64,000 nucleotides of DNA from a virus (taxonomy: Duplodnaviria; Heunggongvirae; Uroviricota; Caudoviricetes; Straboviridae), in the IMG/VR virus record IMGVR_UViG_638275431_000001, positions 19,196 through 83,195 of that record. The stretch is one strand, 5' to 3'. Made by a program: the position numbers and the translations under genes. This document shows positions 4,767-43,779 of the stretch, in pieces. How positions within the stretch are numbered: position 1 is the stretch's first letter; every line of letters begins with the position of its first letter. The notes beneath the pieces were generated by a model. That model was not told the DNA's origin, did no database searches, and saw only the letters and a list, made by a program, of their open reading frames with translations.

Positions 4767-5715
4767 GGAATTCTACGGCAAGCTGAACGAACATATATTG
4801 AACATGAATCTCGATATTTGCAGCTTGACCAAACAGTTGGTTGTTTTCACCGATAATTTCGTACATGCGAATTTTTGCCGGACCATTAACGAGCGGGTAC
4901 AATGCATTGCATAGACGTTCAACAAAACCAGCGTAATCAGTCGTGTATTGACCAGCCATTGCACGAAGCGATTTCAAATCTTTAGCTTTAAGTGCATCAA
5001 TGACTTGTTCGATATCGTTGCGGGTATTGAGAACCAGACTCAGAATACCGCTGTCAATTTTACCTTCGGATGCATAGAAATCCATCTCGTTGACAGTTTT
5101 ACGGAAATCAGGGAAGTTCTTTTTAACCAAAGCGGCAATAACTTTGCGATCTTCAACTTCGATATTTTCAGCATCACAAATTGCTTCGGCACGAACAATC
5201 ATCTGTTTCATCATATTGACTTTATCAGATTGATCGGCTTTACCAAATTGAATAACACGACACCGTGATTGAAGTGCTGGAATAATTCCACCCAAATCAT
5301 TCGCAGTAATGATAAATGTGCAATTTTTGGAATGAGCTTCCATGAATGAGCGAAGATGACGCTGAGAATCTGCAAGACCCGCTCGATCAAATTCATCGAT
5401 GATAATTACTTTTCCACCTGCTGCCATAGTTTTAGAGCTTGCAAATGGAGTCATAACATCGCGAACAAAATCAATTTTTGCGTCTGCGCCGTTAACGAAC
5501 AAAAACTCGGCTTCAACTTCTGATACCAGAGCTTTGGCGACGGTAGTTTTACCTGTGCCTGGGGAAGGAGAATGAAGAATAATGTTGGGGATACGACCAG
5601 ATTTGACGATAGATTTGAAAATCTTTTTGTCATATTCTGGCAAAATGCATTCATCGATTGTTCCTGGACGATATTTGTTTTCAAACATGAATTCGCCGGC
5701 ATTAACTGTCAACAT
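4750..5715 (-). CDS. 44: Clamp-loader ATPase gp44 (AAA+)
   Basis: Walker A SPSPGTGKTTVAKAL, Walker B IIIDEFDR, SRC motif QSRC. Confidence 0.9.
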   Translation of the reverse strand: MLTVNAGEFMFENKYRPGTIDECILPEYDKKIFKSIVKSGRIPNIILHSPSPGTGKTTVAKALVSEVEAEFLFVNGADAKIDFVRDVMTPFASSKTMAAGGKVIIIDEFDRAGLADSQRHLRSFMEAHSKNCTFIITANDLGGIIPALQSRCRVIQFGKADQSDKVNMMKQMIVRAEAICDAENIEVEDRKVIAALVKKNFPDFRKTVNEMDFYASEGKIDSGILSLVLNTRNDIEQVIDALKAKDLKSLRAMAGQYTTDYAGFVERLCNALYPLVNGPAKIRMYEIIGENNQLFGQAANIEIHVQYMFVQLAVEFHGNWL

Positions 5716-5777: not shown

Positions 5778-6449
5778 TTAGAAGTCGTGCTTTGAAGATG
5801 TTTCAAGGACAAATACGTATGCGGTATTAATTCCCTGGAATTGAGCAGCGCCCTTGGAAGAAATATTGATTTTGTAATCGGCAACAACGACACTGACGTT
5901 TTCAAGGTTGATAACGAAACTGAAGTTGTTGGTGCCTTCATATGGACAGACTGTCAAAGAATATCGGGTTCGTGCATTATCACCGTCTTCGACTGCAAAC
6001 GCATCAATAACGATATGATCGTTGCGATTAGTAATCGCGATACGGTCTGCGCCAACTGCCCGAGAGATTTTGAGAATTTCTGTCAAATCTTCGGCTTTCA
6101 GATCAAACTCTACATCAGCCGGAGGCATACGCAGTCGTTGCTTCGGTACCACGATGACCGAAGATTCAGCATCAGGCAGATTTACTTTCGCACGACCATT
6201 TTGGATGACAATTTCCCCGTTTGAGAGATTGATGTCAGAACCTTCACCCAGCTGACCAAGAATTGACAGGAAATTAGGAAGGTCATAGATGTTCAGCTCA
6301 GAATCAATTTCATCTGCGATTGTAGCTTCAGCGTATGCAACACCATTTACCGACTTTGTCATGATGAAATTGCCAGGGGTAAGTCGCAGAGATGGATTGA
6401 TAGCTGCAAAATTCTTCATTACGGACAGTGTTTCTTTTGTAAGTTTCAT
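5778..6449 (-). CDS. 45: Sliding clamp gp45
   Basis: MKLTKETLSVMKNFAAINPSL...FIMTKSVNG..AYAEA...TSSKHDF aligns end-to-end with T4 gp45. Confidence 0.9.
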   Translation of the reverse strand: MKLTKETLSVMKNFAAINPSLRLTPGNFIMTKSVNGVAYAEATIADEIDSELNIYDLPNFLSILGQLGEGSDINLSNGEIVIQNGRAKVNLPDAESSVIVVPKQRLRMPPADVEFDLKAEDLTEILKISRAVGADRIAITNRNDHIVIDAFAVEDGDNARTRYSLTVCPYEGTNNFSFVINLENVSVVVADYKINISSKGAAQFQGINTAYVFVLETSSKHDF

Positions 6450-6502
6450 TTCATATTCCTTTCAGTATTTGAAATATTATAACACAACTACGATATAGCT
6501 TA

Positions 6503-6856
6503 TTAGTAATCTGCCATGACAGTCTGAGCAGCTTGAATAATCAGTTCGTCAGTGTCGTATTGGAATTGTTTGGCCAGTACTTTTTTGTCATTCATTCCTT
6601 TAACATGATATCCGCCATTGACCAGAATGCTTTCTCGACGGCGTACGAGCAAATCGATATACGTGTCTCGAACCATTTTATCAATTTCGGCATATAGTTC
6701 GAACCGAATTTTCTGTTCAAGAGCTTGCAGTTGGTTTGCACGAATATCGCTGATAAATGATACCCAGGCTTTTCGGATTTTAACTGAATTTTCGAACACG
6801 TTATCGCTCATCGGGCGGATATCGGCTGGTACAAAAACAACGGCTTGATTACGCAT
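6503..6856 (-). CDS. rpbA: RpbA-like (RNA polymerase binding protein A); assigned by position between 45 and 45.2
   Basis: Synteny with the T4 45-rpbA-45.2-46 order; size is similar. Confidence 0.45.
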   Translation of the reverse strand: MRNQAVVFVPADIRPMSDNVFENSVKIRKAWVSFISDIRANQLQALEQKIRFELYAEIDKMVRDTYIDLLVRRRESILVNGGYHVKGMNDKKVLAKQFQYDTDELIIQAAQTVMADY

Positions 6857-6916
6857 ACATATTCCTCAGTGTGTTTATAACGAACATTCTAATATAATTT
6901 CTATTCACGCAAATCA

Positions 6917-7102
6917 TTAGTCGAAAATTTCAACTAAACTGTAATAAGCATGACGATTTGATTTCAACTTGCGGATATCTTCTTCGCTGAAGACCTGTTT
7001 TAAGTCATCATCAGTGACAATCAAACTAACATGACTATTTTCATCGGTTAAATTATAACTCCTTATTTCAGGAGCAGTTGTTGGAAGATTATAAAACATC
7101 AA
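6917..7102 (-). CDS. 45.2: gp45.2-like small protein
   Basis: 61 aa; TAPEI...DDDLKQVFSEEDIRKLK resembles T4 45.2; synteny. Confidence 0.5.
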   Translation of the reverse strand: MMFYNLPTTAPEIRSYNLTDENSHVSLIVTDDDLKQVFSEEDIRKLKSNRHAYYSLVEIFD

Positions 7103-8801
7103 AAATTACCTCATTCATTACGCTAGTTCTCCCTAGCTTTGACATTACAATGTGTCTGTCAAATTTCTGAGGATCGTGTTCTCCATGCGAAATGATAAAC
7201 ACGTTGGCTTTCATGTTTTCTATAATTGAAAACACTGAGCGTTGCGCATCATCATCAGAAGGACCGTCAAATACTTCATCCATAAACAGCGCATTAACAT
7301 CTACGCCAGAAACTTCAGATGCTAAATCGCGCCAAGCAAACATGACAGCCATGTCAATACGAGCTTTTTCGCCTTGAGAAAAACTGTTATAACTGAATGT
7401 GCTTCTTCCTGAAGATTTTATTACTTCTTTAAATTCAGAATCAAGAGTAAATCCAAAATCTGCATCCATTATATCAAGATAATGAGAGATGCGATTATTG
7501 AAATACGGAATATAACGGGCCATGATGACAGCTTTAATTCCCGAATCCTTCAAAAGATCAGCTATCAAAGACCTACGATGCTTCTCTTTTTCTAAATCAG
7601 ACTTAGCACTAATTTTTAGACGTAGGTTATTCCCGAGTTGGTCGATTTCCGATGTGTAATCTGTTCTTTCATCCTGCAGACGCTCGATTGCAGCTTTTGC
7701 AGCTTTTGCTTGGTTAACATAAAGAGCAATAGACTGTTTTTCGTTGTTTAACTTATTCTGAAGATCACGGAAATTAACAGTTGCTTCATTGAACTCTATC
7801 ATTTTTTGGTTGAGTTCATTTATACGAATATCGGCTTTATCAAGTTGACCTTGGATCTGCGACATTTTATCACGCAATTTCACTAGCAGTTCAGGATCGT
7901 CAAATTGTTGCATGCATGTTGGACACGTTCCACCATCTTCATGCATATGAGCAATACCGGAAAATTGTTCATGTTGCGCTGCGGCTTTTGCTCTAGCCAT
8001 TGTAAACTTGCCAAGATCGGATGCAGGGGAATCAGGCATCACGAATTCTGTAATTTGCGTTGTGAGCAAATCAATAGCCGACTTGATTTCTTTTGCTTTT
8101 TCGCGAGCGGTGTCATATACTGCCTGGTGGTCGGATATAGCAGCAGCATTGGATGCATTAGAGTTATTCTGGTGATCCTGGTATGTTTTCAGTTGTGAGT
8201 TTATATGGTTTATTTCCATATCAACTGAAGTGATATCCTGGTTTAACTCTTTAATCCTGGTTTTATTGATTTTATCCATTTGAGCTAAGACGGATACTTC
8301 CAGCAAATCTTCCACCAGTTTGCGCCTTTCTGGTGCTTTTAGTTGCATAAATGGCGTATATCCAGCAGTGCCCAAAACAACTATCTGTTTAAAACTGGTA
8401 GAATTCATTCCAATCATTTCTTCGAAATATGACTGAAAATCTTTAACTGATGCTGCAGCATCTATAGCCACACCGTCACAAGTTATCGAAAACTTATTAG
8501 GCTTAATTCCACGTGTAATGTGATAAATCTTTTCTTCGTATTCCAACCAAAGTTCCACTAACAAATTTTTGCCAGTGTTTTCATTCAGCAGTTGGTTTTT
8601 TGTAATATCTCGAAAAGGTTTACCGAATAACGCAAAATAAATTGCCTCCAACATTGTCGATTTTCCGGCACCATTTTTACCAGTACACAACGTTTTAGCA
8701 TACTTGTTAAGCGACATATCGATAGGATCATCGCCCACAGACATGATGTTTTTATAGCGAACTCGAATAAATCCAAGCTGCTTCTTTTTAATTTCAATCA
8801 T
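7089..8801 (-). CDS. 46: Recombination nuclease subunit gp46 (Rad50/SbcC-like ATPase)
   Basis: N-terminal Walker A GKNGAGKST, coiled-coil middle, C-terminal signature/Walker B FMDEVFDG..H. Confidence 0.9.
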   Translation of the reverse strand: MIEIKKKQLGFIRVRYKNIMSVGDDPIDMSLNKYAKTLCTGKNGAGKSTMLEAIYFALFGKPFRDITKNQLLNENTGKNLLVELWLEYEEKIYHITRGIKPNKFSITCDGVAIDAAASVKDFQSYFEEMIGMNSTSFKQIVVLGTAGYTPFMQLKAPERRKLVEDLLEVSVLAQMDKINKTRIKELNQDITSVDMEINHINSQLKTYQDHQNNSNASNAAAISDHQAVYDTAREKAKEIKSAIDLLTTQITEFVMPDSPASDLGKFTMARAKAAAQHEQFSGIAHMHEDGGTCPTCMQQFDDPELLVKLRDKMSQIQGQLDKADIRINELNQKMIEFNEATVNFRDLQNKLNNEKQSIALYVNQAKAAKAAIERLQDERTDYTSEIDQLGNNLRLKISAKSDLEKEKHRRSLIADLLKDSGIKAVIMARYIPYFNNRISHYLDIMDADFGFTLDSEFKEVIKSSGRSTFSYNSFSQGEKARIDMAVMFAWRDLASEVSGVDVNALFMDEVFDGPSDDDAQRSVFSIIENMKANVFIISHGEHDPQKFDRHIVMSKLGRTSVMNEVIFDVL

Positions 8802-9994: not shown

Positions 9995-10018
9995 AAAAAT
10001 AGGCTCCGTGGAGCCTAT
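9995..10018 (-). terminator. Rho-independent terminator (aggctccgtggagcct plus U-run)
   Basis: Hairpin plus T-run on the minus strand downstream of ORF 10026..10370. Confidence 0.55.
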
Positions 10019-10025
10019 TATATCA

Positions 10026-10370
10026 TTAACTATTCACACTAGCATTAAAGGCTTTAGCCATGTCAACAATTTGTTGACGACTAGTTTCAAACATAGTGGT
10101 CATTGCAGAATGAGGAAGTTGCTTTTGCTTGTAAAGGGTACGAAGTTTACTGATAGCGTATGCATACTGTTCTTTATTATTTGCGAATAAAGCTCGTTCA
10201 GCGTGTTTCTTCAGCCGCTTAATTTCTCTCCCGTGCGTTTTAAGATGCTTTGCGGCTTTTTTCTCAGCTTGTTTTTCAAGCTGTTCTTGTAAATCCACGA
10301 GATTTTGGTCATAAACTTCACTCAGAGCTTCTGCACCAGTGCTAAGGTCAACATCGTAATCAGGCGACAT
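10026..10370 (-). CDS. Hypothetical basic/coiled-coil protein (114 aa)
   Basis: ORF with no recognised motif. Confidence 0.4.
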   Translation of the reverse strand: MSPDYDVDLSTGAEALSEVYDQNLVDLQEQLEKQAEKKAAKHLKTHGREIKRLKKHAERALFANNKEQYAYAISKLRTLYKQKQLPHSAMTTMFETSRQQIVDMAKAFNASVNS

Positions 10371-10647
10371 ATGAAATCTCCATTGTCATTGTGTCTACAT
10401 CAATATGCCAATCGAGTTGGCCAGTTTCTACTTCGAACGGCTGCCATGAAATGTTGGCAGGATTTAAAACTACAGGAATATTATAATCCAATAATTGAAG
10501 TTTTACGAAATACGCTAATAATTCTATTTCTCCGCATGTTGAATCAATGATGGGTAAAAGATTAATCTTCAGGGTCGTCTTCATAGAATGAATCCAAATT
10601 AGGAACATCCTCTTTATCTTTCTTTTTAGATTTAAGGGATGATTCAT
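10360..10647 (-). CDS. Hypothetical small protein; probably begins at an internal ATG near 10584 and overlaps the gene 55 3' end
   Basis: ORF only. Confidence 0.25.
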   Translation of the reverse strand: MNHPLNLKRKIKRMFLIWIHSMKTTLKINLLPIIDSTCGEIELLAYFVKLQLLDYNIPVVLNPANISWQPFEVETGQLDWHIDVDTMTMEISYVA

Positions 10648-11080
10648 AGGCTACTAGTTTGCCATGGATGTCTTGGATGAAATTCTCATCAACCAATCGT
10701 GACATATCATCATCATGTTCGTCATACACGTTTGTCAAAAAATAGCGATATTTGATTGCCATTTCGTGTTTTTCGTACTTGATGCGTCCAATAAAGGCAC
10801 GGTAACAAGCCTGTGTGATATAAGCATGAGGGTTTTTGTAATTATCTTCATCGAAATTTATCAAACCCTTTACAACAGCTTCGACTGCATCAGATATCAT
10901 TCCGTCTTTCCAATTTTGCGTATATCCAGCAAATTTGTAATATCCGGTAAAACCTTTGGCAATCTTCATAATGTCTATACCAATTGCATCTGGCATCTTG
11001 ATGTGATGTCCTGCATCACGCATATCTTGTTTCCATTTGCAAATATTCTGGTATAGAACTTCATTGTCAACATATTTCAT
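10562..11080 (-). CDS. 55: Late-transcription sigma factor gp55
   Basis: FTGYYKFAGYTQNWKDGMISDAVEA..KGLINFDEDNYKNPHAYITQACYRAF matches T4 gp55 closely. Confidence 0.9.
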   Translation of the reverse strand: MKYVDNEVLYQNICKWKQDMRDAGHHIKMPDAIGIDIMKIAKGFTGYYKFAGYTQNWKDGMISDAVEAVVKGLINFDEDNYKNPHAYITQACYRAFIGRIKYEKHEMAIKYRYFLTNVYDEHDDDMSRLVDENFIQDIHGKLVAYESSLKSKKKDKEDVPNLDSFYEDDPED

Positions 11081-18733: not shown

Positions 18734-19203
18734 TGAATGGCCTTCTTAAATTGCTTTCTGAATTTTTTGACTAAAACAGCTTTTTGATCTTTTTCATCAA
18801 ATTCAAATCCTCGTTCACGTAGTTCTGCCTTCATTTCACTCAAGTTTTTCCGTGAGAAATTTTTGGTCATGTCGGAAACGTAATTCGGGTGTATTGGATT
18901 TTTTGAATGATCTGAATCTACATATTCTAATAGCGATCTCATCCATTGGATGTAATCAACATCCTTTGCCTTTAATCCTGACCGTATAAACTTGTGTTTC
19001 ATTATGCCTTCAAGTAGATTGCATCTACTGCAAAGTAGACCTCGAATCTTTCCGGCATTCGGGCCTTGCAATACGTGATCGTGATCCAAATGCTGTTTAT
19101 TGTATGGACCGTCAAACTCGTTTCCACACAATTTACAACACTTATTTTGTTCTTCAAACAATTTCTGTTTTAATTCATCAGCAGACTTGGAATTTAAGAG
19201 CAT
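18730..19203 (-). CDS. 49: Endonuclease VII gp49 (Holliday-junction resolvase)
   Basis: QNKCCKLCGNEF...HLDHDHVLQGPNAGKIRGLLCSRCNLLEG...RGFEF matches T4 EndoVII. Confidence 0.9.
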   Translation of the reverse strand: MLLNSKSADELKQKLFEEQNKCCKLCGNEFDGPYNKQHLDHDHVLQGPNAGKIRGLLCSRCNLLEGIMKHKFIRSGLKAKDVDYIQWMRSLLEYVDSDHSKNPIHPNYVSDMTKNFSRKNLSEMKAELRERGFEFDEKDQKAVLVKKFRKQFKKAIQ

Positions 19204-19231
19204 AAAGATTCCTCCATATGCTCTTATTTAA

Positions 19232-19630
19232 TTACAAGGTTACGCTGTACTTCACGTTATCGTTATCGGTATATACGATTTCATAGCTGGCAAGGTTTTT
19301 TGGATATTCACCCTCATGGCGTGGCCGCCATAGTGTTTCAACACCATATTTTTCCCATATTTCTATGCTTTCTTCCTCTTCGCAGAAATAACGATAGTAG
19401 TCGGGAATGTCGGTGAAATCGTCCAGACCACCCTTACCGTTTGGGTATCGATTTTTGCATTTTTCCAGGAAAATGGCAAGACGCTCGATTTCAATAGAAG
19501 CTTCGTTTAAATTAACAGCTGGAAGTTCCCAGTGAATCGTTTTATCATCAAACTTGTCGCTGAAGTTGATGGTAACTTTAAACATATTACGTTCATCTTT
19601 TGCTTTGAATTTTCTAAACTTGAGGGTCAT
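19232..19630 (-). CDS. Hypothetical protein (132 aa)
   Basis: ORF only. Confidence 0.35.
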   Translation of the reverse strand: MTLKFRKFKAKDERNMFKVTINFSDKFDDKTIHWELPAVNLNEASIEIERLAIFLEKCKNRYPNGKGGLDDFTDIPDYYRYFCEEEESIEIWEKYGVETLWRPRHEGEYPKNLASYEIVYTDNDNVKYSVTL

Positions 19631-19860
19631 TTTGCCACCATTATAACTTGTTTGGCGTTGTAGTCTATTGTTGCGTTATATATTTTGCCGTGGTGGGCAA
19701 AATATTTTGAATTTCCAATTTCAACTTCTTCTATATCAGGAAATGCCCAATAGATCGTGTTTTTGATTTGTTCATGATCTGTTGACAAAAGATTAACTCT
19801 GATATTGCCACCGATCACTCTGGTGAATTCTTTGGCATGATTATGTATATGCATACACAT
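19627..19860 (-). CDS. Hypothetical protein (77 aa)
   Basis: ORF only. Confidence 0.3.
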   Translation of the reverse strand: MCMHIHNHAKEFTRVIGGNIRVNLLSTDHEQIKNTIYWAFPDIEEVEIGNSKYFAHHGKIYNATIDYNAKQVIMVAK

Positions 19861-20046
19861 TCACATTGCAGGGATTATGGGTAAAATGGATTGATATTCT
19901 TGAAATGACAAATAAACATATTCAACTTGCGGGACAGAAAAAACTGAACGCAATTGGTTGATTGTTTCATTGTTTAGCGGATATTCGTATTGGTCATTAT
20001 TTTCTAGAGCTTTTTTGAATTCATTTCTTGTCAGTTTGATTTGCAT
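19861..20046 (-). CDS. Hypothetical protein (likely start MQIKLTRNEF)
   Basis: ORF only. Confidence 0.25.
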   Translation of the reverse strand: MQIKLTRNEFKKALENNDQYEYPLNNETINQLRSVFSVPQVEYVYLSFQEYQSILPIIPAM

Positions 20047-20281
20047 TACTTTCCCACTCCGCTTTTGACATAACGATATGACCCCATTCAATAGAAACAA
20101 TAAAGAGTCGTAAACGATTTAACTTATACCCGTTGTACATTTGGCCCCAATATGATGGAAGATGTCCGAATTCTCCATCAATTGAAAAATATTTTACCAG
20201 ATATGAATTTTTCCATTCATAGATTATTTTCTTTTTATACAGCCATTCTTGTTCATACCACTTGATAATTTTATTAAACAT
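20021..20281 (-). CDS. Hypothetical protein (86 aa, W/Y-rich)
   Basis: ORF only. Confidence 0.3.
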   Translation of the reverse strand: MFNKIIKWYEQEWLYKKKIIYEWKNSYLVKYFSIDGEFGHLPSYWGQMYNGYKLNRLRLFIVSIEWGHIVMSKAEWESNANQTDKK

Positions 20282-20326
20282 GATTTCTCCAATGTTAAAT
20301 GCCCTCTTCGGAGGGCATTTAAACGA

Positions 20327-21808
20327 TTACTTAATTGCAGTGCGCTGGCGGATTTCAGCCAGATTGCTCTTGAATTTTTGACCTTTTTCAGCGTCATAAT
20401 AACGGACGAATGCATCTTTCGACATAAGTTCAACAAAACCGTCTTTGATGCTTACACCGGACAGCATTTGCCCACCTTCAATAGTTCCTTCGGTATAATA
20501 GCGGCCGTCATCCATGACTCGCAGTTTGAGCTGGCCTTTCTTGGAAGCTTTCCATTCAGCCCCTTTCGGGCATTTGAATACGTCTTTCCATACACCATTG
20601 ATTTTGATAGCAGACATTTTCATGGCCCACTTGCAAGTGTCGCGGTTAACCATTTGCAGAAGACCGCCACCCATGCCGAACGCAATATTCTCTGCAGCCC
20701 CAACCCACGAGCTTTTCATAACAGTCAGAACACGGCCGATAACTTCGGGACCGTCGATGCCATCACCTTGAATAATGCGGCAATGCTTATTCAGAACCTT
20801 GTAGCCCTTGCTGTTGGTTTCATAACCGAAGATTTCACCCAGAGTTTCCAGAGCAAAACTGATATTGTCGATCATATCACCACTGTCAGGTCGAGCGATC
20901 AGAGTACCACCCTTGGTGATGACTTCGTCCTTATAGCTCTCGATTTCACGGATTGCCTTCTTGAAATCAGTAGAGTCATCCACAATGGAATATGCACCAA
21001 CACCAAAGAGTTTAACCGAGTTGAGGTAGGCGTCTTTTTCACGATCGGCACCCCAAGAGGTTACAGTGGAGTGCTCGCGGGCTGGTACAGAGATGCCTGC
21101 CATTTCGGCGCCAAACAGTTGTTTTGCGAAATACAGCGACTCGAAAGTGTCAGTACCCATAGAGTTGTACAGATGAGCACAACCGCCGATTGCAGCAGAT
21201 TCACCAGAACTAACGCCGCGAGAACCAAAATCATGTAGTCGGGTCATCAGCACAAAGTGGAACTCAGGACTGCCTACTTCCAGGTCAGAAGTTTCAATCA
21301 GATGGTGACGAATAGATTTGATGCATTCGCGGCTCAGCGTGGCAACAGTAGAAGTGTACCAAACAGCTCGCAAAATGATTGGCTCAAACCAGCCTGCCAA
21401 CCAAACGAACGGTGCTTTAACGCGAGCAGTCAGCACGACGTTCTTGACTGGGACAACAGTGCCTTCGGGAACAGCATCAATTTGGATGGGCAGACAGCCA
21501 TGCTGTTCTTGATATTGGCGGACTGCTTCCCAACCTTCGCGGTTGAATACGTCTTGGCCGAAGTGAGCCTTGCTCATGGCATCCATTTCGTCAATATCAT
21601 CTTTGGTGATGATTTCTGCAAACTTGGTCAGCAGATATTCCACACCACCGATAACGATTTCATCGAATTTGCCGCCACGGGCTTCGATGTAGAAAACTGC
21701 TTCTTCGGTACCTTCAGGCATCTGGTTCCAATGGGTGATTTTGTAAGAATCAGTCATTGCGATCAGCGGGATACCTTTCACACCTGTAGGTTGACGAATC
21801 ATATTCAT
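20327..21808 (-). CDS. nadV: Nicotinamide phosphoribosyltransferase (NAMPT, NadV)
   Basis: 493 aa, type II PRTase/NAMPT family (GGGLLQ..., DSGD motifs), as in Vibrio phage KVP40 NadV. Confidence 0.85.
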   Translation of the reverse strand: MNMIRQPTGVKGIPLIAMTDSYKITHWNQMPEGTEEAVFYIEARGGKFDEIVIGGVEYLLTKFAEIITKDDIDEMDAMSKAHFGQDVFNREGWEAVRQYQEQHGCLPIQIDAVPEGTVVPVKNVVLTARVKAPFVWLAGWFEPIILRAVWYTSTVATLSRECIKSIRHHLIETSDLEVGSPEFHFVLMTRLHDFGSRGVSSGESAAIGGCAHLYNSMGTDTFESLYFAKQLFGAEMAGISVPAREHSTVTSWGADREKDAYLNSVKLFGVGAYSIVDDSTDFKKAIREIESYKDEVITKGGTLIARPDSGDMIDNISFALETLGEIFGYETNSKGYKVLNKHCRIIQGDGIDGPEVIGRVLTVMKSSWVGAAENIAFGMGGGLLQMVNRDTCKWAMKMSAIKINGVWKDVFKCPKGAEWKASKKGQLKLRVMDDGRYYTEGTIEGGQMLSGVSIKDGFVELMSKDAFVRYYDAEKGQKFKSNLAEIRQRTAIK

Positions 21809-21810
21809 AA

Positions 21811-22467
21811 TTAAGCCCCAATTGAGTTTTTGATAATTTTCATGTTGTCTTCGACTTCTTTACGTAGTGCTTGCAACTTGGCGATTTCACAGTCGATTTC
21901 TTTCAGCCGCTTAGAGCCAAAGTTGAGTGCACCTCGAATTGTGTGAATAGCTTTTCCGATCGCTTCAGAAAAGAAGATGCTTTCGCAAATTTCTTTCTCG
22001 GTTTCGAGATTAACAGGTTCTGCCGATCGTGCCTCTTCGACATTGTTTGCATCTTCAGCAACAGGCTTGACGTGTTCAATTTCGCTCAAGATGATGCTAA
22101 ATTTAACTATTTGATTTCTGCCATTTTCAGAAATATCAATTTTTACAACGGCCCCGTAATGCCTAAGCAGTTCTAGTCTCGCTGCAAAACAATCTGCTTC
22201 AAACACTGTGTTGAGCCAAATAATTCCTTTAACCGTGACGGCGTTTTCGGCATCAACATTAAAGTAGTTTGGTTTGATTTTGGAGATGCCATTGTGTTTA
22301 CCCAGAGCCGATGTGGGCATCAAATTTGGCAAAATATCATTTACCAGCTTCATGAAGTGGTGATAATTTGCCAGCCGTTCAGTTACAGGCTTATAGGTTT
22401 TAAAGCGATTATTGGAAGTATCCCGACGATTTTCCAAAAAGTTCTTAACTGCCGCATAATAATTCAT
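21811..22467 (-). CDS. Hypothetical protein (218 aa)
   Basis: ORF; start overlaps the stop of the upstream peptide. Confidence 0.4.
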   Translation of the reverse strand: MNYYAAVKNFLENRRDTSNNRFKTYKPVTERLANYHHFMKLVNDILPNLMPTSALGKHNGISKIKPNYFNVDAENAVTVKGIIWLNTVFEADCFAARLELLRHYGAVVKIDISENGRNQIVKFSIILSEIEHVKPVAEDANNVEEARSAEPVNLETEKEICESIFFSEAIGKAIHTIRGALNFGSKRLKEIDCEIAKLQALRKEVEDNMKIIKNSIGA

Positions 22468-22613
22468 TCACAAATTCTCGCAATAATGGTTGAACCGATA
22501 ACTGCCATTGCACATCCGAGAACGGCGTAAGCATTTCCGATATACATCGAATAAAACAATGCAAATGACGCTATGTACCCAATGTTGATTGCAGCAGCTT
22601 TGATGGACATTTA
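22467..22613 (-). CDS. Small hydrophobic peptide (48 aa, MSIKAAAINIGYIASFALFYSMYIGNAYAVLGCAMAVIGSTIIARICE), immediately downstream of a PeSL cassette
   Basis: RBS ACGGAGTAATTTAAATG shared with other PeSL copies; below the ORF-finder size cutoff. Confidence 0.4.
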
Positions 22614-22628
22614 AATTACTCCGTTCGT

Positions 22629-22673
22629 TTATTGATGGGAACATTATAACCAATGTTCCCATCACTGTACACT
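22629..22673 (-). promoter_or_regulatory. PeSL-like cassette: sigma70-type promoter (TGTACA-17-TATAAT) overlapping the hairpin TGATGGGAACA..TGTTCCCATCA
   Basis: Read on the minus strand. The GATGGGA...TCCCATC palindrome and downstream RBS are shared with the copies at 24110, 30558 and 47701. Confidence 0.55.
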
Positions 22674-22683
22674 AGCCTTTCAA

Positions 22684-23355
22684 TCAAATATTGAATTTTT
22701 CCGAAAGATAGTCGCGAACATATTGTCGTTTGTTTTGGAGTTTATCTTGCAATTGCGCAAGTTCTCGAGAAAGAACGTCGATTCGTGACTCAAGTGCCGG
22801 GATTTCTTCTAGCAGTTTATCGACACTGATATTATCTCTCATGATATCAATCTCTTCGGTAGTCGCGTAATGAATGTTTTCAGGCTTAAGATGAGCCGGC
22901 TTTGCACGAAGTTCGGTATTCCGACGGTTCCGATAGCGATTCAACACAGGCAAAAATAAATTCATTCCTCTCGCACGAATTTCAATTTCAAGAAGCCGTG
23001 CGAGCATCAATACGCCCTTGTCATTAGAAAACACCAATTCACCAACTCGCGAGACACCTCTCTCATACACGTATACGGTCATGCCGGCGTTGGCTTTACA
23101 CGGTGGAATATGGTTTTCTCTCATAATTCGGTCAATTTTGTGCCAAAACCATGCCGGAATCCTGGCGGTTTTTTGATACGTATTATTCCATGCTGCCGTT
23201 GTTTCAGCATTGAACATTTTGCAAACAAGATTAAGCCAATCGCGATCGTGTTGTTCAGATTGTAAGGTGTTCAAAAAATTGCGAACATGAGCAATGTCGT
23301 TGTGACGTCGGCGTTGGTGTTTACGTTGAGAACGAAGGGTAGATTTTCCACTCAT
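22684..23355 (-). CDS. Hypothetical protein (223 aa)
   Basis: ORF only. Confidence 0.4.
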   Translation of the reverse strand: MSGKSTLRSQRKHQRRRHNDIAHVRNFLNTLQSEQHDRDWLNLVCKMFNAETTAAWNNTYQKTARIPAWFWHKIDRIMRENHIPPCKANAGMTVYVYERGVSRVGELVFSNDKGVLMLARLLEIEIRARGMNLFLPVLNRYRNRRNTELRAKPAHLKPENIHYATTEEIDIMRDNISVDKLLEEIPALESRIDVLSRELAQLQDKLQNKRQYVRDYLSEKFNI

Positions 23356-23645
23356 GCTTTGTCTTCCTTATCGGTAATAACTACAATAGCCTTGGCGCTT
23401 TCGGAAACATAGTCGTCTACCATAAACACTGTGATTTCGTCGGAAACGTGACATTTCCGGAGAATTTCATAGCAGAGCGAACAATCATTTTCGGAAATAC
23501 CCAGCTTGTCATGCAGAAATATAAATCCGTCTTTCACCAGCCAATATTCTTTAGCGAAAATCTCAAGTTCACCGACTTTATTACCGATGAGCGATTCAAC
23601 TTGGAGTTTGCTTTCCAAGTATACTTTAACGATATTCAGTTCCAT
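23352..23645 (-). CDS. Hypothetical protein (97 aa)
   Basis: ORF only. Confidence 0.35.
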   Translation of the reverse strand: MELNIVKVYLESKLQVESLIGNKVGELEIFAKEYWLVKDGFIFLHDKLGISENDCSLCYEILRKCHVSDEITVFMVDDYVSESAKAIVVITDKEDKA

Positions 23646-23843
23646 TTAATGCCCCAAAACGAACATTTTGTTGATAATATTCAACCCAGTTTGGTCAGTT
23701 AAACCAATACCGCCTTTGACAATCATTGTGTCTCATTGTGTCTTTCATATTATCATTGAAGAAATCATCAAAATGCACAGATACGGAATTGACGATTTCT
23801 GTGGAGTTCTGTGCAACCATTTTTGCCATTTCGGCAGCTTTAA

Positions 23844-24095
23844 TCATTTCATCAGTCCCTTTTTCATAAAGAGGAAAGTTGCGCCAGCGATAATACCAAC
23901 AATGAAGATTTTACGAGCCATATCGATATCGCCAATAAAGCACATTGCAGCTCCTACTCCAACGATTCCTACGGTAATACCGGCGGCAATGGTTTCGAAT
24001 CGGGTAATTTTAACCTCTTTGGTTTCTGTCGCTGACTTAACGACACGGCCAACGAAATCCATGGATTGCAGGTTAGTTGATTTAGTGATTTTCAT
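23844..24095 (-). CDS. Small membrane protein (MKITKSTNLQ...; one TM helix). The ORF-finder start at 24137 lies inside the PeSL hairpin
   Basis: RBS AAGGAG 6 nt before the internal ATG. Confidence 0.4.
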   Translation of the reverse strand: MKITKSTNLQSMDFVGRVVKSATETKEVKITRFETIAAGITVGIVGVGAAMCFIGDIDMARKIFIVGIIAGATFLFMKKGLMK

Positions 24096-24109
24096 GATGT
24101 ACTCCTTAG

Positions 24110-24155
24110 TTGATTTGATGGGACTATAGTAAATCATAGTCCCATCAATGTAAAC
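24110..24155 (-). promoter_or_regulatory. PeSL-like cassette (TTTACA-17-TACTAT promoter plus hairpin GATGGGACTAT..ATAGTCCCATC)
   Basis: One of three near-identical copies (24110, 30558, 47701). Confidence 0.55.
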
Positions 24156-24158
24156 CGT

Positions 24159-24404
24159 TTAGTCTACTTTTTCACAAAACTTTTCAAACTCAAAGGAGGT
24201 AAAAGGAAACCAACCTTCTTTCGAAGAAACAATTTCTTCAAGAGTTTTACCATCGAAAATACTTTTAACTTGACTGTGCTTGTTGATTCTGGCAATAAAA
24301 ATTGTGTTTGCGCTGAAACCTACTGCCCAAATGTGGCGGCTGAACCGAGTAGTATACTCAGTCAGCATTTCCTTACTTTTGAATTTAAAGCGAATCAATT
24401 TCAT
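24159..24404 (-). CDS. Hypothetical protein (81 aa)
   Basis: ORF only. Confidence 0.35.
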   Translation of the reverse strand: MKLIRFKFKSKEMLTEYTTRFSRHIWAVGFSANTIFIARINKHSQVKSIFDGKTLEEIVSSKEGWFPFTSFEFEKFCEKVD

Positions 24405-25378
24405 TATTTGCTCTCCAGATATTCTTTCATTGCTTCAGCGTAAACCTGTTCTACAAACGCTTCCCATGGCCCCATGTCCACTTTATCGGGCATTCCATTA
24501 TTTGATGCCTCTTTAGCGGCTGTATCAACATTTTCAACTATTTCTTCGAGGCGTTCTTTAAAAAAAGAAAAAGACAGTTTGCCAGCTTTAACCAGTTTGA
24601 TTTCTTCGGCATCAGCCAATGGATACTTCAAATCGCCAGTTTTGTAAATTTCAAGCAATTGAAGACCGCCTCGCACTGCATGGCTTAGAGCTTTCCAGTC
24701 GATACCTTCATTTGCTTCGGCTTTGCGAGCTCGATCGCCGTATTCGGCCCAGAGCTTGTCGACTGCCCCGCAGAATTCAGTGATCTTAACACCAGCCATG
24801 TACTTACGACCCATCATGGTGTAATACGACATGGTGTCGGGATTTTCTTCAATGTGAGTCCAGAAGCAGAACTCGTTTTGCGGCAGAGGAACTTTGAGGT
24901 CTCGCAGCCTTGGGTTTTCATGAATCTGAAGAGCATCCATGAACTCTTTTACTTCTCGTAATGCGGCTAAACGAGAACCTTTAACACCGTATTTTGCCGC
25001 TTGCTTCATAACATAACCCATATAGGAAGTCATATTGGTCGTGTAGAAAGCAGACCGGTTTTGATGGATATATTGCCAAACAGACGAGTCGGTGATGATT
25101 TTGTCTTTTGGAGAATGCAACATATCCAATGCATAGGTTTCGCCCTTGGCCGCATCCAGGATGAATTGTTGGAGCGAAAACATTTCGATATCAACATCAT
25201 CCTTGCTGTTCTTGGACTTATCGTTGCCAGTTGTGATGGAATAGCTTCTTTTGGCTCGGCCAAGCAGAATATCTTTGGGGTCGGGGATGAAAATGCCTTT
25301 CATATCCAGGTCAGATTCAGGAGTATTGAGGCCGTAAAGATGAGAGCCGTGAAGGCCCTCAAAAACTACTTTTTGCAT
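24404..25378 (-). CDS. Pol-beta superfamily nucleotidyltransferase of unknown specificity (324 aa)
   Basis: GLHGSHLYGLNTPESDLDMKGIF matches the hG[GS]x(9-13)DhD catalytic signature, similar to the AadA/ANT-like N-terminus; alpha-helical C-terminal domain. Confidence 0.5.
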   Translation of the reverse strand: MQKVVFEGLHGSHLYGLNTPESDLDMKGIFIPDPKDILLGRAKRSYSITTGNDKSKNSKDDVDIEMFSLQQFILDAAKGETYALDMLHSPKDKIITDSSVWQYIHQNRSAFYTTNMTSYMGYVMKQAAKYGVKGSRLAALREVKEFMDALQIHENPRLRDLKVPLPQNEFCFWTHIEENPDTMSYYTMMGRKYMAGVKITEFCGAVDKLWAEYGDRARKAEANEGIDWKALSHAVRGGLQLLEIYKTGDLKYPLADAEEIKLVKAGKLSFSFFKERLEEIVENVDTAAKEASNNGMPDKVDMGPWEAFVEQVYAEAMKEYLESK

Positions 25379-25538
25379 AATTTCTACCTTAAGATAATTT
25401 CATGTCATATGCTTTAAGTTGATCACGATCGTTGTGGTTAACGAAAACTGATCTATGATAATCAGCATCCCAAGCAATTAGAGAACCGTCTTCTGCGATG
25501 AATTTAACCACATATCGTTTATCATGATTGTGATCGTC

Positions 25539-26597
25539 CTAGATACCAGTGAAGCGCGAAATGATTTCAGCATGATCGTCAAACATACGGGCCCGATTTC
25601 TCTTGTATTCATGCATTGGCATCCAAAATGCTGCTTTTGCATCATCGTCAGCACGAACTTCGGGCAAACTACCATCGTCATTAGGTTGAAGTACGATATA
25701 ATAAGCAACAGTCGGTTTGCAGAACTCTGCCGTTCTCTTCGGGTGATCAAATACTTCGTGCGCTTTTATAGACCCAATGATTTTTTGACGATCGACATCA
25801 ATCCGAACTTCTTCATACAATTCGCGAATTGCGCAATCACGGAAGGTCTCATTGGAATTCTTGTGACCGCCTGGAAGAGCAAGAGCGCCTTTGCCTGGAG
25901 CATGTTTGCGACTAATAACCAGAATATGGTTGTTGCAAGTTACTACGGCATCTGCAGTATTACAGTTGAGAGCATCAGCGTATGGATAATCTTTAAACTT
26001 TGCAAGTTCATTGTCCCACATCGCACGTTCTTCCATCAAACGGTCGCGTATTTCGGAGCCTTCAGTATTCCAAAATTTCAAGAGAAACGACCGCACTGAC
26101 GGGTTGATAGGGAAATCATCATGGATAGCACCGGTTCGAAGAAATTCGTCACGCATTGGGGTATTTGAGATGTCTTTTCCGTGATTCTGAACGCCCATGC
26201 ATTGAATATGTTCCCACCCGAAGGTTTTGATCCAATAAGAATCTTCATCCTTATCGTATGCAATCATCGCCACCCGCTCACCCGGTTGCTCTCGCGCAGC
26301 TTCACGAACTTCTGTTTGCCAGCGATCTTCATTATAGCGGTAGTCAGGAACATTGCCGAAAACAATTCTTGCCTGTTCGCTAGGAGTGAGATTGTTACTC
26401 ATCCATTCTTTGAACATTCTGATTCGAATCGGCGTTGGAAGCGGGTTGATCGTGTTTGGATAACAATGGGATGACCCAAAGACAACAGCAACAGTTTCTG
26501 CAGTTTGAAGTGCTTTATAAATCAGAATTTCGTGCCCGCGGTGGAAAAAGCTGGAAAAGCGGCCAATAACAACAGCACGATCATAATCATAAACCAT
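25539..26597 (-). CDS. natV: Bifunctional NMN adenylyltransferase / Nudix hydrolase (NatV-like)
   Basis: N-terminal (H/T)xGH motif GRFSSFFHRGH; C-terminal Nudix box GGHKNSNETFRDCAIRELYEEVRI. Confidence 0.8.
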   Translation of the reverse strand: MVYDYDRAVVIGRFSSFFHRGHEILIYKALQTAETVAVVFGSSHCYPNTINPLPTPIRIRMFKEWMSNNLTPSEQARIVFGNVPDYRYNEDRWQTEVREAAREQPGERVAMIAYDKDEDSYWIKTFGWEHIQCMGVQNHGKDISNTPMRDEFLRTGAIHDDFPINPSVRSFLLKFWNTEGSEIRDRLMEERAMWDNELAKFKDYPYADALNCNTADAVVTCNNHILVISRKHAPGKGALALPGGHKNSNETFRDCAIRELYEEVRIDVDRQKIIGSIKAHEVFDHPKRTAEFCKPTVAYYIVLQPNDDGSLPEVRADDDAKAAFWMPMHEYKRNRARMFDDHAEIISRFTGI

Positions 26598-26598
26598 A

Positions 26599-26832
26599 TC
26601 AATAACCTCGACGAATCAGTGTATTAATTTCTATCTGATTTTGACGCCATTCGATGTTAGCGCATCGAACTAATCCTGCCGTGATAAACAAGTCGACAAA
26701 CCAGCCAAGGCCAAACAGACCGCAAGTAAAAAACCAAATAACTCCGGTGACGTAATTTCTGGTGTAGAAACGGTGAATACCAAAAACACCCAGAAAAAAC
26801 CAAAGAACATACGCTAAAGCTGTAGATTTCAT
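26599..26832 (-). CDS. TM2-domain small membrane protein
   Basis: Two TM helices with GIHRFY...GLFGLGWFVD motif. Confidence 0.5.
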   Translation of the reverse strand: MKSTALAYVLWFFLGVFGIHRFYTRNYVTGVIWFFTCGLFGLGWFVDLFITAGLVRCANIEWRQNQIEINTLIRRGY

Positions 26833-27201
26833 TTATACCAACCGTTCAAGACGTTCAAGGCGATTTTCAAGTTTAGACATGCGTTCCCGCAAGGCTGCGT
26901 TTTCGGCGAGCAATTGATCAACATCATTATTTTCCAATATCTTCTGAGATATCTCATGAGCAACATCTTCAGAGCTTACTTCTTCCAAATATTCTTTTAC
27001 TTCGATGGCGAAGAACACAGGAAAATACTCTGGAAACAAAGTAATGCCGTTGATTTCGAAAAAAATCTCGTCGATAGCATCCTGTGACATAGCTGCGTAA
27101 AATGTCTGATCGCATACACTATTAGCAATAGTTTTATTAGTGTCGCTTACAGCAGCAAATTTATGACGAGCTTCAGCAGATTTAAAACGATATCTTTTCA
27201 T
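26833..27201 (-). CDS. Hypothetical coiled-coil protein (122 aa)
   Basis: RBS GGAGGAA; leucine-rich heptads at the C-terminus. Confidence 0.4.
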   Translation of the reverse strand: MKRYRFKSAEARHKFAAVSDTNKTIANSVCDQTFYAAMSQDAIDEIFFEINGITLFPEYFPVFFAIEVKEYLEEVSSEDVAHEISQKILENNDVDQLLAENAALRERMSKLENRLERLERLV

Positions 27202-27240
27202 AATTCCTCCAAATGGCCCCCTAAAGGGGCCACGATCATG

Positions 27241-27633
27241 TCAGTGATACACTTTGTGCGATTTTTGCGCAGGTTTAACAAGTTCTTGAGTAGCAATTAC
27301 TTCATAACCATACGCTTCGAGCTCAGCACATACCGTAATCCAAGGGCCGCGACTCATTGCGAAGTTGACATCCAGAATAATGGTGCCAAAGCGGTCGAAA
27401 TAGCCAAGATCTTTGAACATTTCGGGAGTTGCAGGTTCCACACAAGTAACGATGTCATAGCGGTTTTTGATAGCAGGATTCTGAATACTAAACATGTTAA
27501 CTCGATGTTCCAGCACAGATGGATGTTCTTTGGAAGAAACGATGAGAACTGGATGATTCATTGCTGCCATGTATGCAGATTTGATTGCTTCAGCGGTTTT
27601 ACCTTCACCAGCAGACTTAAGGATAATTTGCAT
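27241..27633 (-). CDS. Small P-loop-like protein (AGEGKT ... ILDV), 130 aa
   Basis: Walker A/B-like motifs; a possible paralog is at 41800..42255. Confidence 0.35.
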   Translation of the reverse strand: MQIILKSAGEGKTAEAIKSAYMAAMNHPVLIVSSKEHPSVLEHRVNMFSIQNPAIKNRYDIVTCVEPATPEMFKDLGYFDRFGTIILDVNFAMSRGPWITVCAELEAYGYEVIATQELVKPAQKSHKVYH

Positions 27634-29177: not shown

Positions 29178-30404
29178 TTATGGAGGGTTTAAATCATCTG
29201 CAGCTTGCCAATTTTCGACTACGTGTGGAATAAATCGACTGTTATTGCCGGTAATTCGGCTATCATCTTCTCTGATACCCAAACCCACAGCATCGCTACC
29301 TACCATCCATACACCAAGCATTGGGTAGCAACCATCGAAATCTTTCCATTCGATATATTCCTGGACGATACGCGGTTCTTCTGCGTAATTGCCATCGGTG
29401 AATTCACTTTCTCCACCATATTCAAAAATATGAACATTGCAACCTTCGCGAGAAAGAAGAGGCTTTGACACCCATTTCGGATTTTCATAAGTGAACAGAT
29501 TAAATCGGTCAAAATCATCTTCCATATACGCTGGAACCAACCACTCACAGTCAGGATAACGCTCATAAAGAAGAACCAAAAGTGCTTTGTTGGAAAGCAT
29601 CATTTTCCAAGTTGGTTCAATAAACCGAGTGTTGCTTCCACCGATGGCTTTGCCAAAATCGTCTTCATACAACCATTCCCATGGATACAGTTTGAAGCAG
29701 GTGTCGATATGTTGGCCTTCAATGTCATAAAAATTACCATCATCACTGAGCTGAATTTCAGCTATATCAAACATTTTGACATTCAGTCCTGCTTCTGAAG
29801 CGGTTTCAGCCATATATGCGATTGTAGCAAAATCATCAACTTGCGTAGTAGCTACAAAGCTGATTTTATCACCAATTGCGTATAAGGTGCTCATATCACG
29901 CCAGTGATTAACCAACGCTTCATGAATTTCGTTAAATTGAAAAGCTTCTTGATGGAATTTTTCGTGTTGATCATTGAACCAATTCCATTGAGAAATTGCA
30001 GATTCAATGAGAATTGTGGGGGTATCGGCATTATATTCGAGAAGCTTGGGTCCGTTTTCGGTCATGATGAAATCAAACCGCCCATAAAGGCCCCATTCAT
30101 CATCTTCCCAGCTTCGCATGATTTGGTCACGAGACTCATATGGGATATTGAACATGTCGAAAATTTCATTTTGTTTCTTGCTGTCGCGTGTAAACAGCCA
30201 TTCTATTGTCTCAAGACACATTTCATGGATTTCGTTTGCAGCTTTCTCGAGTTGCTCTTGCTCTTTGCGAGTGAAAGAGTAATACTTAGGCTGAACCATC
30301 GCTTCGGTCCAATAAGGACCTTCTTCAGTAGTGGTCCACAAAACACCTTCGGAAGTCAACTGTGGCAACCAATCTTTACGAGCTTCAATAGATACGCGTT
30401 TCAT
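29178..30404 (-). CDS. ATP-grasp enzyme of the glutathionylspermidine-synthase family (GspS/YgiC/YjfC-like)
   Basis: EYNADTPT and WVSKPLLSREGCNVHIF motifs typical of the GSP_synth family; 408 aa. Confidence 0.5.
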   Translation of the reverse strand: MKRVSIEARKDWLPQLTSEGVLWTTTEEGPYWTEAMVQPKYYSFTRKEQEQLEKAANEIHEMCLETIEWLFTRDSKKQNEIFDMFNIPYESRDQIMRSWEDDEWGLYGRFDFIMTENGPKLLEYNADTPTILIESAISQWNWFNDQHEKFHQEAFQFNEIHEALVNHWRDMSTLYAIGDKISFVATTQVDDFATIAYMAETASEAGLNVKMFDIAEIQLSDDGNFYDIEGQHIDTCFKLYPWEWLYEDDFGKAIGGSNTRFIEPTWKMMLSNKALLVLLYERYPDCEWLVPAYMEDDFDRFNLFTYENPKWVSKPLLSREGCNVHIFEYGGESEFTDGNYAEEPRIVQEYIEWKDFDGCYPMLGVWMVGSDAVGLGIREDDSRITGNNSRFIPHVVENWQAADDLNPP

Positions 30405-34163: not shown

Positions 34164-34364
34164 TTACTCCACTATAACAGTTTGACCGATAAACAGCTGG
34201 CCATTGTGCTTAATTTCATAGTTGACTTTAACACAATCACCAACTTCGCGATATGAGTGGATAATAACGCCGTCCAGGTCAGGACCAAAAAGATGAATGA
34301 AAGCAGCTTCAAACACTTTTTGCATAACCGGGCCGCACTGTTGCCATTTACCTTTAACTTCCAT
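34164..34364 (-). CDS. Hypothetical protein (66 aa)
   Basis: ORF only. Confidence 0.3.
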   Translation of the reverse strand: MEVKGKWQQCGPVMQKVFEAAFIHLFGPDLDGVIIHSYREVGDCVKVNYEIKHNGQLFIGQTVIVE

Positions 34365-34839
34365 CGAATTCTACCACCGTGATATCGATATTTGGGGTAA
34401 CTTCATTGATGATTGCTTCAATTTTGTCCCAATCGCCTCGGGCAAGACCGGCACCTATTTTAGGAATACACATAGTTGGGCGTAAACCAAAATCAACAGT
34501 CTCTTGACACAGTGTATTAACTTCCGCAAAACAAGCTCTAACGGCGTCGTAAGAAAGCATATCGGCAGGATCCCAAAATGTTGCTTGGGTATACATATTG
34601 AAGGCGACCCCATGCTGATCACCGCAGGCGATTGGAGAACCACTGATTGTACCCAACTTTTTACGGTCACCTTCAGTGGTCAATTGATCAAGCTGCCACA
34701 ACTCAGGAAGGCGATTCCGGACTTCTTTTGCAATTCCAGAACCCATTCGGTTAAAAATGTTACAACCGTGAGCAAACATTTGATATTTGCCGGACAAGAA
34801 AAGGCTAATTGCGTTGCCGTGTACATATTCAACAATCAT
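34354..34839 (-). CDS. Macro-domain protein (ADP-ribose binding/processing)
   Basis: FAHGCNIFNRMGSGIAKEV resembles the macro motif VNAAN..L..GGGV..AI; 161 aa. Confidence 0.5.
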   Translation of the reverse strand: MIVEYVHGNAISLFLSGKYQMFAHGCNIFNRMGSGIAKEVRNRLPELWQLDQLTTEGDRKKLGTISGSPIACGDQHGVAFNMYTQATFWDPADMLSYDAVRACFAEVNTLCQETVDFGLRPTMCIPKIGAGLARGDWDKIEAIINEVTPNIDITVVEFDGS

Positions 34840-42744: not shown

Positions 42745-42814
42745 AAAAAGGGTAGTCCTATGGGATTGGACCGATGGCCAGCGACTTAGAAGGTTGCTGC
42801 TCTATCCTGCTGAG
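42745..42814 (-). pseudogene. tRNA-Arg(UCU)-like sequence with intact D-arm and anticodon loop but a non-canonical T-arm and acceptor 3' strand; probable pseudo-tRNA
   Basis: ggtccct-ta-GCTCagcaggataGAGC-a-gcaaccTTCTAAgtcgc..., then ggtccaatccc where GGTTCGAATCC is expected, and no strand complementary to the acceptor. Confidence 0.35.
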
Positions 42815-42831
42815 CTAAGGGACCATAGTGA

Positions 42832-42855: not shown

Positions 42856-42875
42856 CGGAGACGTTCGCGTATCCG

Positions 42876-43757: not shown

Positions 43758-43779
43758 TTTGAATCTTGAAAATTTAGAG

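Follow-up and report, generated by a model that had tools for sequence, protein, structure and literature searches.

Predicted NARP2 genes and an RlaP-family nucleotidyltransferase side by side in a plastic region of the T4-like Aeromonas phage 25

Introduction

The nicotinamide adenine dinucleotide (NAD+) reconstitution pathway 2 (NARP2) is a published route of phage KVP40, which consists of a nicotinamide phosphoribosyltransferase (Nampt) and a nicotinamide mononucleotide (NMN) adenylyltransferase (Nmnat). In a heterologous host, the two KVP40 genes by themselves abolished type I Thoeris and DSR2 defence and raised the level of NAD+. Here, a region that carries genes of both enzyme families, nadV and natV, together with the nucleotidyltransferase gene nrdC.11 was analysed. 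It occupies positions 20327-26597 of a stretch of 64,000 nucleotides of viral DNA (IMG/VR record IMGVR_UViG_638275431_000001, positions 19,196 to 83,195), and this whole stretch is called the window below. A preliminary description of the region had assigned the NadV and NatV proteins to NAD+ salvage and had suggested that the nucleotidyltransferase between them, presented as uncharacterised, acts on the same metabolite pool.

The second point of comparison is the RlaP family. According to papers quoting Burroughs and Aravind (2016), the name stands for RNA-ligase-associated Pol-beta and reflects the association with RNA ligases, and the prediction for RlaP was that it replaces, ahead of ligation, the nucleotides missing from damaged RNA ends. 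In a preprint of December 2025, the RlaPs of Pseudomonas fluorescens and Pseudomonas aeruginosa were reported to add 1-2 nucleoside monophosphates (NMPs) to the 3'-OH of RNA with Mn2+. These enzymes favour the 3' end of the 5' half of a cleaved tRNA over the mature 3' end, and they raise the aminoacylation of repaired tRNA that had lost a nucleotide. They also label rRNA, full-length tRNA and fragments with little specificity for the nucleoside triphosphate, and they were inactive on DNA, on protein and on small molecules tested as cell extracts.

Results

The analysed region was 100% identical to Aeromonas phage 25 (a T4-like phage of Straboviridae, Tulanevirus; NC_008208/DQ529280), and a position in the window equals the position in the NC_008208 record minus 19,195. 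Every gene of the region lies on the minus strand. The three open reading frames (ORFs) of interest are intact: nadV, for a Nampt of 493 amino acids (20327..21808); nrdC.11, for a Pol-beta-fold nucleotidyltransferase of 324 amino acids (24404..25378); and natV, for a bifunctional NMN adenylyltransferase/Nudix protein of 352 amino acids (25539..26597). NC_008208 names nadV, and the records of relatives annotate the adenylyltransferase/Nudix gene.

The NadV protein contains the Pfam domains NAMPT_N (E 6e-26) and NAPRTase (E 5e-39), passes the equivalog cutoff of NCBIfam NF006629 (432 bits, cutoff 405) and matches phrog_448, 'nicotinamide phosphoribosyl transferase' (E 6e-155). It shares 49% identity with the homologue of a KVP40-like Vibrio phage. 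NatV aligns end to end with NF003786, the family of bifunctional NMN adenylyltransferase/Nudix proteins, at E 3e-64 and with 217 bits, which is under the equivalog cutoff of 397; its Nudix domain, of the ADP-ribose pyrophosphatase type, was also recognised by Pfam (NUDIX, E 4e-18). Its motifs are intact, namely HRGH (HxGH) at residues 19-22, ISNTPMR (ISxTxxR) at 143-149 and the Nudix box at 244-266. Over 98% of its length, NatV is 36% identical to its counterpart in a phage assigned to the species Schizotequatrovirus KVP40. The nadV and natV genes of phage 25 are therefore predicted to form the NARP2 pathway, which is already published, and in this respect the earlier assignment to a two-enzyme phage route to NAD+ was correct. 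NadV would convert nicotinamide and phosphoribosyl pyrophosphate to NMN, the adenylyltransferase domain of NatV would adenylylate NMN to NAD+, and the NAD+ so made would restock the pool emptied by NAD-depleting defences. In PADLOC, with its defence-system models, NadV and the nucleotidyltransferase had no match; the NatV Nudix domain weakly matched PDC-S07, which is uninformative.

The nucleotidyltransferase is, by its sequence, the orthologue of T4 NrdC.11 (T4p095, NP_049709). The two proteins are 52% identical in BLASTP (E 2e-118, residues 3-320 against 2-334), and NrdC.11 is the sole significant match of the phage 25 protein in the T4 genome. When the complete T4 genome (168,903 bp) was searched with tblastn, NrdC.11 (E 2e-101), PseT and RnlA were found, and NadV and NatV were absent (best E 0.18 and 1.4). 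The gene order is 49 ... nrdC ... nrdC.10 - nrdC.11 - mobD ... rI.-1 - rI ... tk ... tk.4 in T4 and 49 ... nadV ... nrdC.11 - natV ... rI.-1 ... tk ... tk.4 in phage 25. Accordingly, nrdC.11 stands in its ancestral T4-like slot, and the NAD genes occupy the variable flanks in which T4 holds other cargo. Shared T4-like synteny thus explains the location of the nucleotidyltransferase gene between the NAD genes, and because the gene simply keeps its ancestral slot, this position is no evidence of a function shared with them. The preliminary description had placed the gene wedged between, and flanked by, the salvage pair. It is indeed close to natV, with one ORF of 40 amino acids between them (PHG25ORF075c, 25389..25511 within the 160-bp gap, minus strand, zero matches in a Pfam scan), but 3.7 kb and nine annotated genes separate nadV from natV, and seven small ORFs over 2.6 kb lie between the nucleotidyltransferase gene and nadV.

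The signature noticed earlier, hG[GS]x10DxD, is present as HGS-x10-DLD at residues 10-25 and is followed by DVDIE at 61-65. Across 76 homologues, G11, S12, D23 and D25 are invariant and D61 and D63 are at least 90% conserved. The protein matches phrog_388 (E 1e-119) and the Pfam family PF10127, RlaP (53.2 bits, cutoff 23), the latter with residues 3-133 only (profile positions 19-142 of 249). PF10127 is present in all 120 listed homologues. At E <=1e-3 the family comprises 3,631 cluster representatives at 50% identity, and 838 at <=1e-30. The term uncharacterised does not suit a protein with these matches, the more so as NC_008208 already calls the ORF nrdC.11, a nucleotidyltransferase. Nor does the protein lack an obvious partner domain, as had been stated. 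Its AlphaFold2 (AF2) model, with a mean confidence score (pLDDT) of 93.4, divides into two domains. The N-terminal one is a Pol-beta nucleotidyltransferase domain, whose catalytic residues are found where strands 24-31 and 62-68 begin. The C-terminal one, of some 190 residues, consists mainly of helices in the model and contains a beta-hairpin insert (about 171-194). Searches of solved structures by sequence, made with the protein, with its 76-sequence profile and with a canonical RlaP profile, gave no meaningful match. A search of the BFVD viral structures returned other phage and giant-virus nucleotidyltransferases, none of them functionally annotated.

Membership in other nucleotidyltransferase groups was also considered. 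Similarity in sequence or fold to CD-NTase/cGAS-like proteins was not found, nor was close similarity in both fold and sequence to the aminoglycoside nucleotidyltransferases (ANT), that is ANT(4')/kanamycin nucleotidyltransferase (KNTase) and AadA; a GlnE-type assignment was rejected.

The neighbourhoods of relatives in viruses and bacteria support an RNA-repair context for the NrdC.11 subfamily. Compact repair cassettes were seen in contigs of uncultivated viruses. In three of them (L084-L086), a gene for an HD-phosphatase/P-loop kinase is followed by an Rnl1-type ligase gene and then by the nucleotidyltransferase gene (39% identical; about 1700-5270 in L086). In a fourth (L069, 9965-13182), the nucleotidyltransferase (43% identical) is followed by an RNA ligase and then by a T4-type PNKP. 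The cellular set consisted of 80 loci from bacterial and archaeal genomes, in which the nucleotidyltransferase is 32-41% identical to that of phage 25 except in two phage-like contigs (49-53%). Recognisable RNA-repair genes occur within 6 kb at nine of the 80 loci, and the neighbours include Pnkp ligase domains, a T4-type PNKP, an RnlA-like gene and a Ro60-like gene. RNA ligase or end-healing neighbours were found at the bacterial loci L096, L136, L137, L140, L146 and L173; the relatives with such neighbours are 33-43% identical to the phage 25 protein. Moreover, tblastn revealed a canonical full-length RlaP beside the NrdC.11-like gene at 23 of the 80 cellular loci, immediately downstream in 13. 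Loci with such a tandem paralogue in metagenome-assembled genomes (MAGs) are L101, L114, L119, L130, L139, L146, L147, L154, L159, L160, L168 and L172, with the NrdC.11-like gene at about 6001-6950 and the RlaP paralogue (PF10127, E 4e-75) at about 6950-7800. This arrangement suggests a unit of two nucleotidyltransferases in bacteria.

NAD genes are essentially missing from the same neighbourhoods. Outside two T4-like-looking contigs, no NatV gene was found near the nucleotidyltransferase gene in the 80 bacterial and archaeal loci, and a single locus that is not phage-like (L125, an Acholeplasmataceae MAG, with the nucleotidyltransferase at 1219-2115) has a NadV-like gene at a distance of up to 6 kb. 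The two contigs, filed as bacterial assemblies (L094 and L095), carry nucleotidyltransferases 53% and 49% identical to that of phage 25, plus NatV. One is a 43-kb contig of a Bacilli MAG and the other a 178,077-bp contig of Flagellimonas marina CGMCC 1.15774, and both resemble the genomes of T4-like phages more than host DNA.

The phage distribution of the three proteins also differs. Of 50,697 phage records, 1,533 contain an NrdC.11 homologue and 425 contain NatV, with Escherichia phages accounting for 607 and 10 of these, respectively; NadV-like proteins were found in 2,013. NadV-like genes are common in phages of Staphylococcus, Mycobacterium and Pseudomonas, genera that are outside the ten commonest host genera of NrdC.11. 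Nolan et al. (2006) found nrdC.11 in six of six T4-like genomes and the NAD pair in three of the six, with the two NAD genes widely separated in Aeh1 and RB43; they are far apart also in Klebsiella phages. In Stenotrophomonas phage Moby, natV and nadV form a compact pair with an annotated terminator behind it, and no nucleotidyltransferase gene lies within 10 kb. When viral contigs were searched with NatV as a single-protein query, two close relatives only were recovered, so the question of natV without the nucleotidyltransferase rests on the hand-picked Moby and KVP40-type phage.

Other features of the window surround the three genes. The block of seven small annotated ORFs between nadV and nrdC.11 (21811..24404, minus strand) belongs to neither the NAD nor the nucleotidyltransferase functional unit. 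Five of its ORFs were scanned; they gave zero Pfam matches, and their sole matches are phrog_14624, 9809, 10168, 10090 and 17516, phage families without an assigned function. Directly upstream of natV, after a one-base gap, there is a gene for a TM2-domain membrane protein of 77 amino acids (26599-26832, minus strand). A full-length homologue of glutathionylspermidine synthase (PF03738, E 3e-118; 29178-30404, minus strand), a metabolic gene of a kind unusual in phages, is situated between the rI-like gene and tk. The annotation of the tk.4 homologue (34354-34839, minus strand) cites an A1pp/macro motif, which is related to ADP-ribose, and the Pfam scan made here was empty at E <=1e-3; if this were a true macro domain, a further ADP-ribose-handling gene would lie close to the NAD genes.

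Thirteen tRNA genes are clustered on the minus strand at 42750-46025 according to ARAGORN. The program adds a second tRNA-Met at 43398-43473 that the RefSeq feature table does not contain, and it makes no call at about 45567-45649, where RefSeq places a tRNA-His (AUG anticodon). At 1-3761 of the window (record 19087-22956), the annotation splits the DNA polymerase gene 43 into two parts, 43A and 43B, which are separated by a homing endonuclease gene, and it also lists a group I intron.

Discussion

Taken as a whole, the region is probably best explained by the known NARP2 pair and an independent NrdC.11 enzyme acting on RNA 3' ends, which share a variable early region. As the best reading of the nucleotidyltransferase, we infer that NrdC.11 adds nucleotides to RNA 3' ends and takes part in tRNA repair together with PseT and RnlA. 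The enzyme would extend the 3'-OH end of an RNA by one or a few NMPs in a template-independent manner. A host anticodon nuclease of the RloC type would cut a tRNA and remove a nucleotide, PseT of the phage would heal the ends, NrdC.11 would put back the missing nucleotide, and RnlA, which requires a 3'-OH and a 5'-phosphate, would reseal the tRNA. This order of PseT, NrdC.11 and RnlA, which we infer, is chemically coherent because RnlA needs the 3'-OH that the RlaP reaction leaves. According to the proposal in the literature, the nucleotide-restoring step would matter only against nucleotide-excising nucleases of the RloC type. The genes pseT and rnlA and one for a second RNA ligase are present at other places in the phage 25 genome, and NrdC.11 would work independently of the NAD genes. 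T4 survives the loss of nrdC.11-mobD.3; this dispensability fits an accessory counter-defence role and proves nothing on which one.

Several observations weigh against a tRNA-repair enzyme that is independent of the NAD pair, and they concern both the protein and its position. In profile-profile comparison (hhalign) with 12 canonical RlaPs, only columns 7-133 align (probability 94%, E 1.4e-7), and the alignment of the C-terminal half is zero. The C-terminal domain, presumed to bind the substrate, therefore differs from that of the canonical enzymes, and the NrdC.11 type is a distinct subfamily. The December 2025 preprint places T4 NrdC.11 in cluster 5 of the family network and states its function as unknown. 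The tandem pairing in bacteria also suggests that NrdC.11-like proteins and canonical RlaPs are not interchangeable and that their activities may differ. The genes pseT and rnlA are not neighbours of nrdC.11 in T4-like phages, including phage 25 and T4, where the distance is about 80 kb.

As to position, a natV or NadV-like gene is located a few kb from nrdC.11 in Aeromonas, RB16/Klebsiella-type, Aeh1-type and KVP40-type phages. The linkage was counted in 80 IMG/VR loci with the nucleotidyltransferase, covering up to 10 kb on each side. The natV gene lies 1.5-4 kb upstream of nrdC.11 at ten of them (L007, L021, L023, L025, L032, L039, L040, L059, L068 and L070). At 11, a NadV-like gene is found within 10 kb, mostly downstream (L007, L059-L062, L068 and others), and five of these genes are only 25-29% identical. 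Both genes are near nrdC.11 at three loci and neither at 62, all as raw counts in which the kinship between genomes is ignored. In the KVP40-type phage, the nucleotidyltransferase (30% identical) is 4.6 kb from natV in reversed order; at locus L092, the two linked genes lie at 4407-5342 and 10001-11014. Moreover, no minus-strand terminator-like site was seen in the promoter/terminator scan of 20000-27400, and co-transcription of nrdC.11 with natV is therefore possible. The same scan gave 20 promoters against 15.9 +/- 4.4 in shuffled sequence and six terminators against 6.2, so these counts are not above the shuffled level and are uninformative on operon structure. The recurring linkage of the NAD genes with nrdC.11 is a real pattern, but it is best explained as inherited synteny or an insertion hot spot, because the order, the spacing and the intervening genes vary among lineages and T4-like genomes are strongly syntenic.

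An action on RNA 3' ends for other purposes, such as CCA repair or tagging, tailing of transcripts or the marking of RNA during takeover, is the strongest competitor of the tRNA-repair role and is still unlikely. The broad labelling of RNAs by the Pseudomonas RlaPs, the separation of nrdC.11 from pseT and rnlA, the divergent C-terminal domain and the phage's own cluster of 13 tRNA genes would all agree with it. However, close relatives reside within cassettes of ligase and kinase/phosphatase genes, which points to the repair of breaks rather than to tailing, and the characterised RlaPs use the 3' end left on the 5' tRNA half in preference to that of the mature tRNA.

It is rather improbable that the protein is no RNA enzyme at all and acts as a modifier of a small molecule or a protein, similar to kanamycin nucleotidyltransferase or MNT, or as a maker of short oligonucleotides similar to HalB of Hailong, for instance as a defence decoy. 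A weak structural resemblance to HalB, an oligodeoxyadenylate synthase, was seen, but the matches behind this reading are poor (template modelling (TM) score <0.3, 13-15% identity) and are due to the shared Pol-beta fold and helical domain. The sequence matched no solved structure and no defence-system model, and both the PF10127 membership and the RNA-repair context of the relatives speak against such a role.

The weakest proposal, that the nucleotidyltransferase is a third component of the NAD+ counter-defence and adenylylates or otherwise modifies ADP-ribose, a precursor of NAD or a nucleotide of defence signalling, can draw on the linkage described above and on the place of the gene directly downstream of natV on the same strand, but it is very doubtful given that T4 and most T4-like phages retain the orthologue without NadV or NatV, that nadV and natV are dispersed in several lineages or closed into a unit of their own in Moby, that the two NARP2 genes were sufficient in a heterologous host, that cellular relatives are repeatedly beside RNA-repair genes and essentially never beside NAD genes, and that the characterised family members use RNA. 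There is a similarly slight chance that the proximity of natV and nadV to nrdC.11 reflects a real functional coupling, such as the repair or modification of RNAs damaged or ADP-ribosylated through NAD-consuming defences, or a defence-neutralising oligonucleotide, to which the weak resemblance to HalB would point; separately, the bacterial tandem of NrdC.11-like protein and RlaP could, with as little probability, be a two-enzyme unit with division of labour.

The preliminary description thus made a real observation and overstated it. Its account of NAD+ salvage was correct, while the inclusion of the nucleotidyltransferase in the NAD metabolite pool is unsupported, since the T4 orthologue occupies the same slot in a genome without NadV and NatV, NrdC.11 is found in far more phage records than NatV, and the family is tied to RNA repair. 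That description had held that its idea would fail if the protein clustered with housekeeping aminoglycoside or tRNA nucleotidyltransferases and never co-occurred with nadV/natV. The protein does cluster with an RNA-acting nucleotidyltransferase family, but co-occurrence exists, at 10/80 loci for natV and 11/80 for NadV-like genes. Because the NAD+ pair corresponds to NARP2 and all three genes are already in public annotation, no new system is added here. When a gene of this plastic early region in a T4-like genome has a pathway gene on either side, this does not indicate a shared function. More than 1,500 sequenced phages, T4 among them, carry a member of the NrdC.11 subfamily, which is dispensable in the laboratory; with the viral cassettes of ligase and kinase/phosphatase genes and the canonical RlaP that accompanies the bacterial genes, the tRNA-repair hypothesis can be tested directly.

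Summarizing, the region holds two known kinds of accessory function, probably unrelated, as neighbours in a plastic stretch of a T4-like genome, and each of them can be set against its closest described system. Like KVP40 with its NARP2, phage 25 is a T4-like phage that has both enzyme families in the same domain architecture and with the same catalytic motifs; it differs in that the two genes are dispersed, whereas they are compact in Moby. Compared with T4 NrdC.11, the phage 25 protein belongs to the same length class (324 against 336 amino acids), slot and Pfam family; the neighbours are nrdC.10 and mobD in T4 and natV with small ORFs in phage 25, where nrdC.10 is located elsewhere in the genome. 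With the Pseudomonas RlaPs, NrdC.11 shares the Pol-beta core with GS...DxD and a third Asp, the succession of an N-terminal nucleotidyltransferase domain and a C-terminal helical domain, and the RNA ligase association of the PF10127 family. Those enzymes, in contrast, belong to network cluster 1a, and their genes stand between rtcB and rtcA; NrdC.11 exceeds the canonical type by about 60-70 residues, aligns with it over the N-terminal 120-130 residues alone, and its presumed ligase partner is the 5'-phosphate ligase RnlA, not RtcB. The PseT and Rnl1 system that T4 directs against PrrC requires no nucleotidyltransferase in its classical form. Its phage 25 orthologues, 41% and 43% identical to those of T4, would act before and after the proposed nucleotidyltransferase step.

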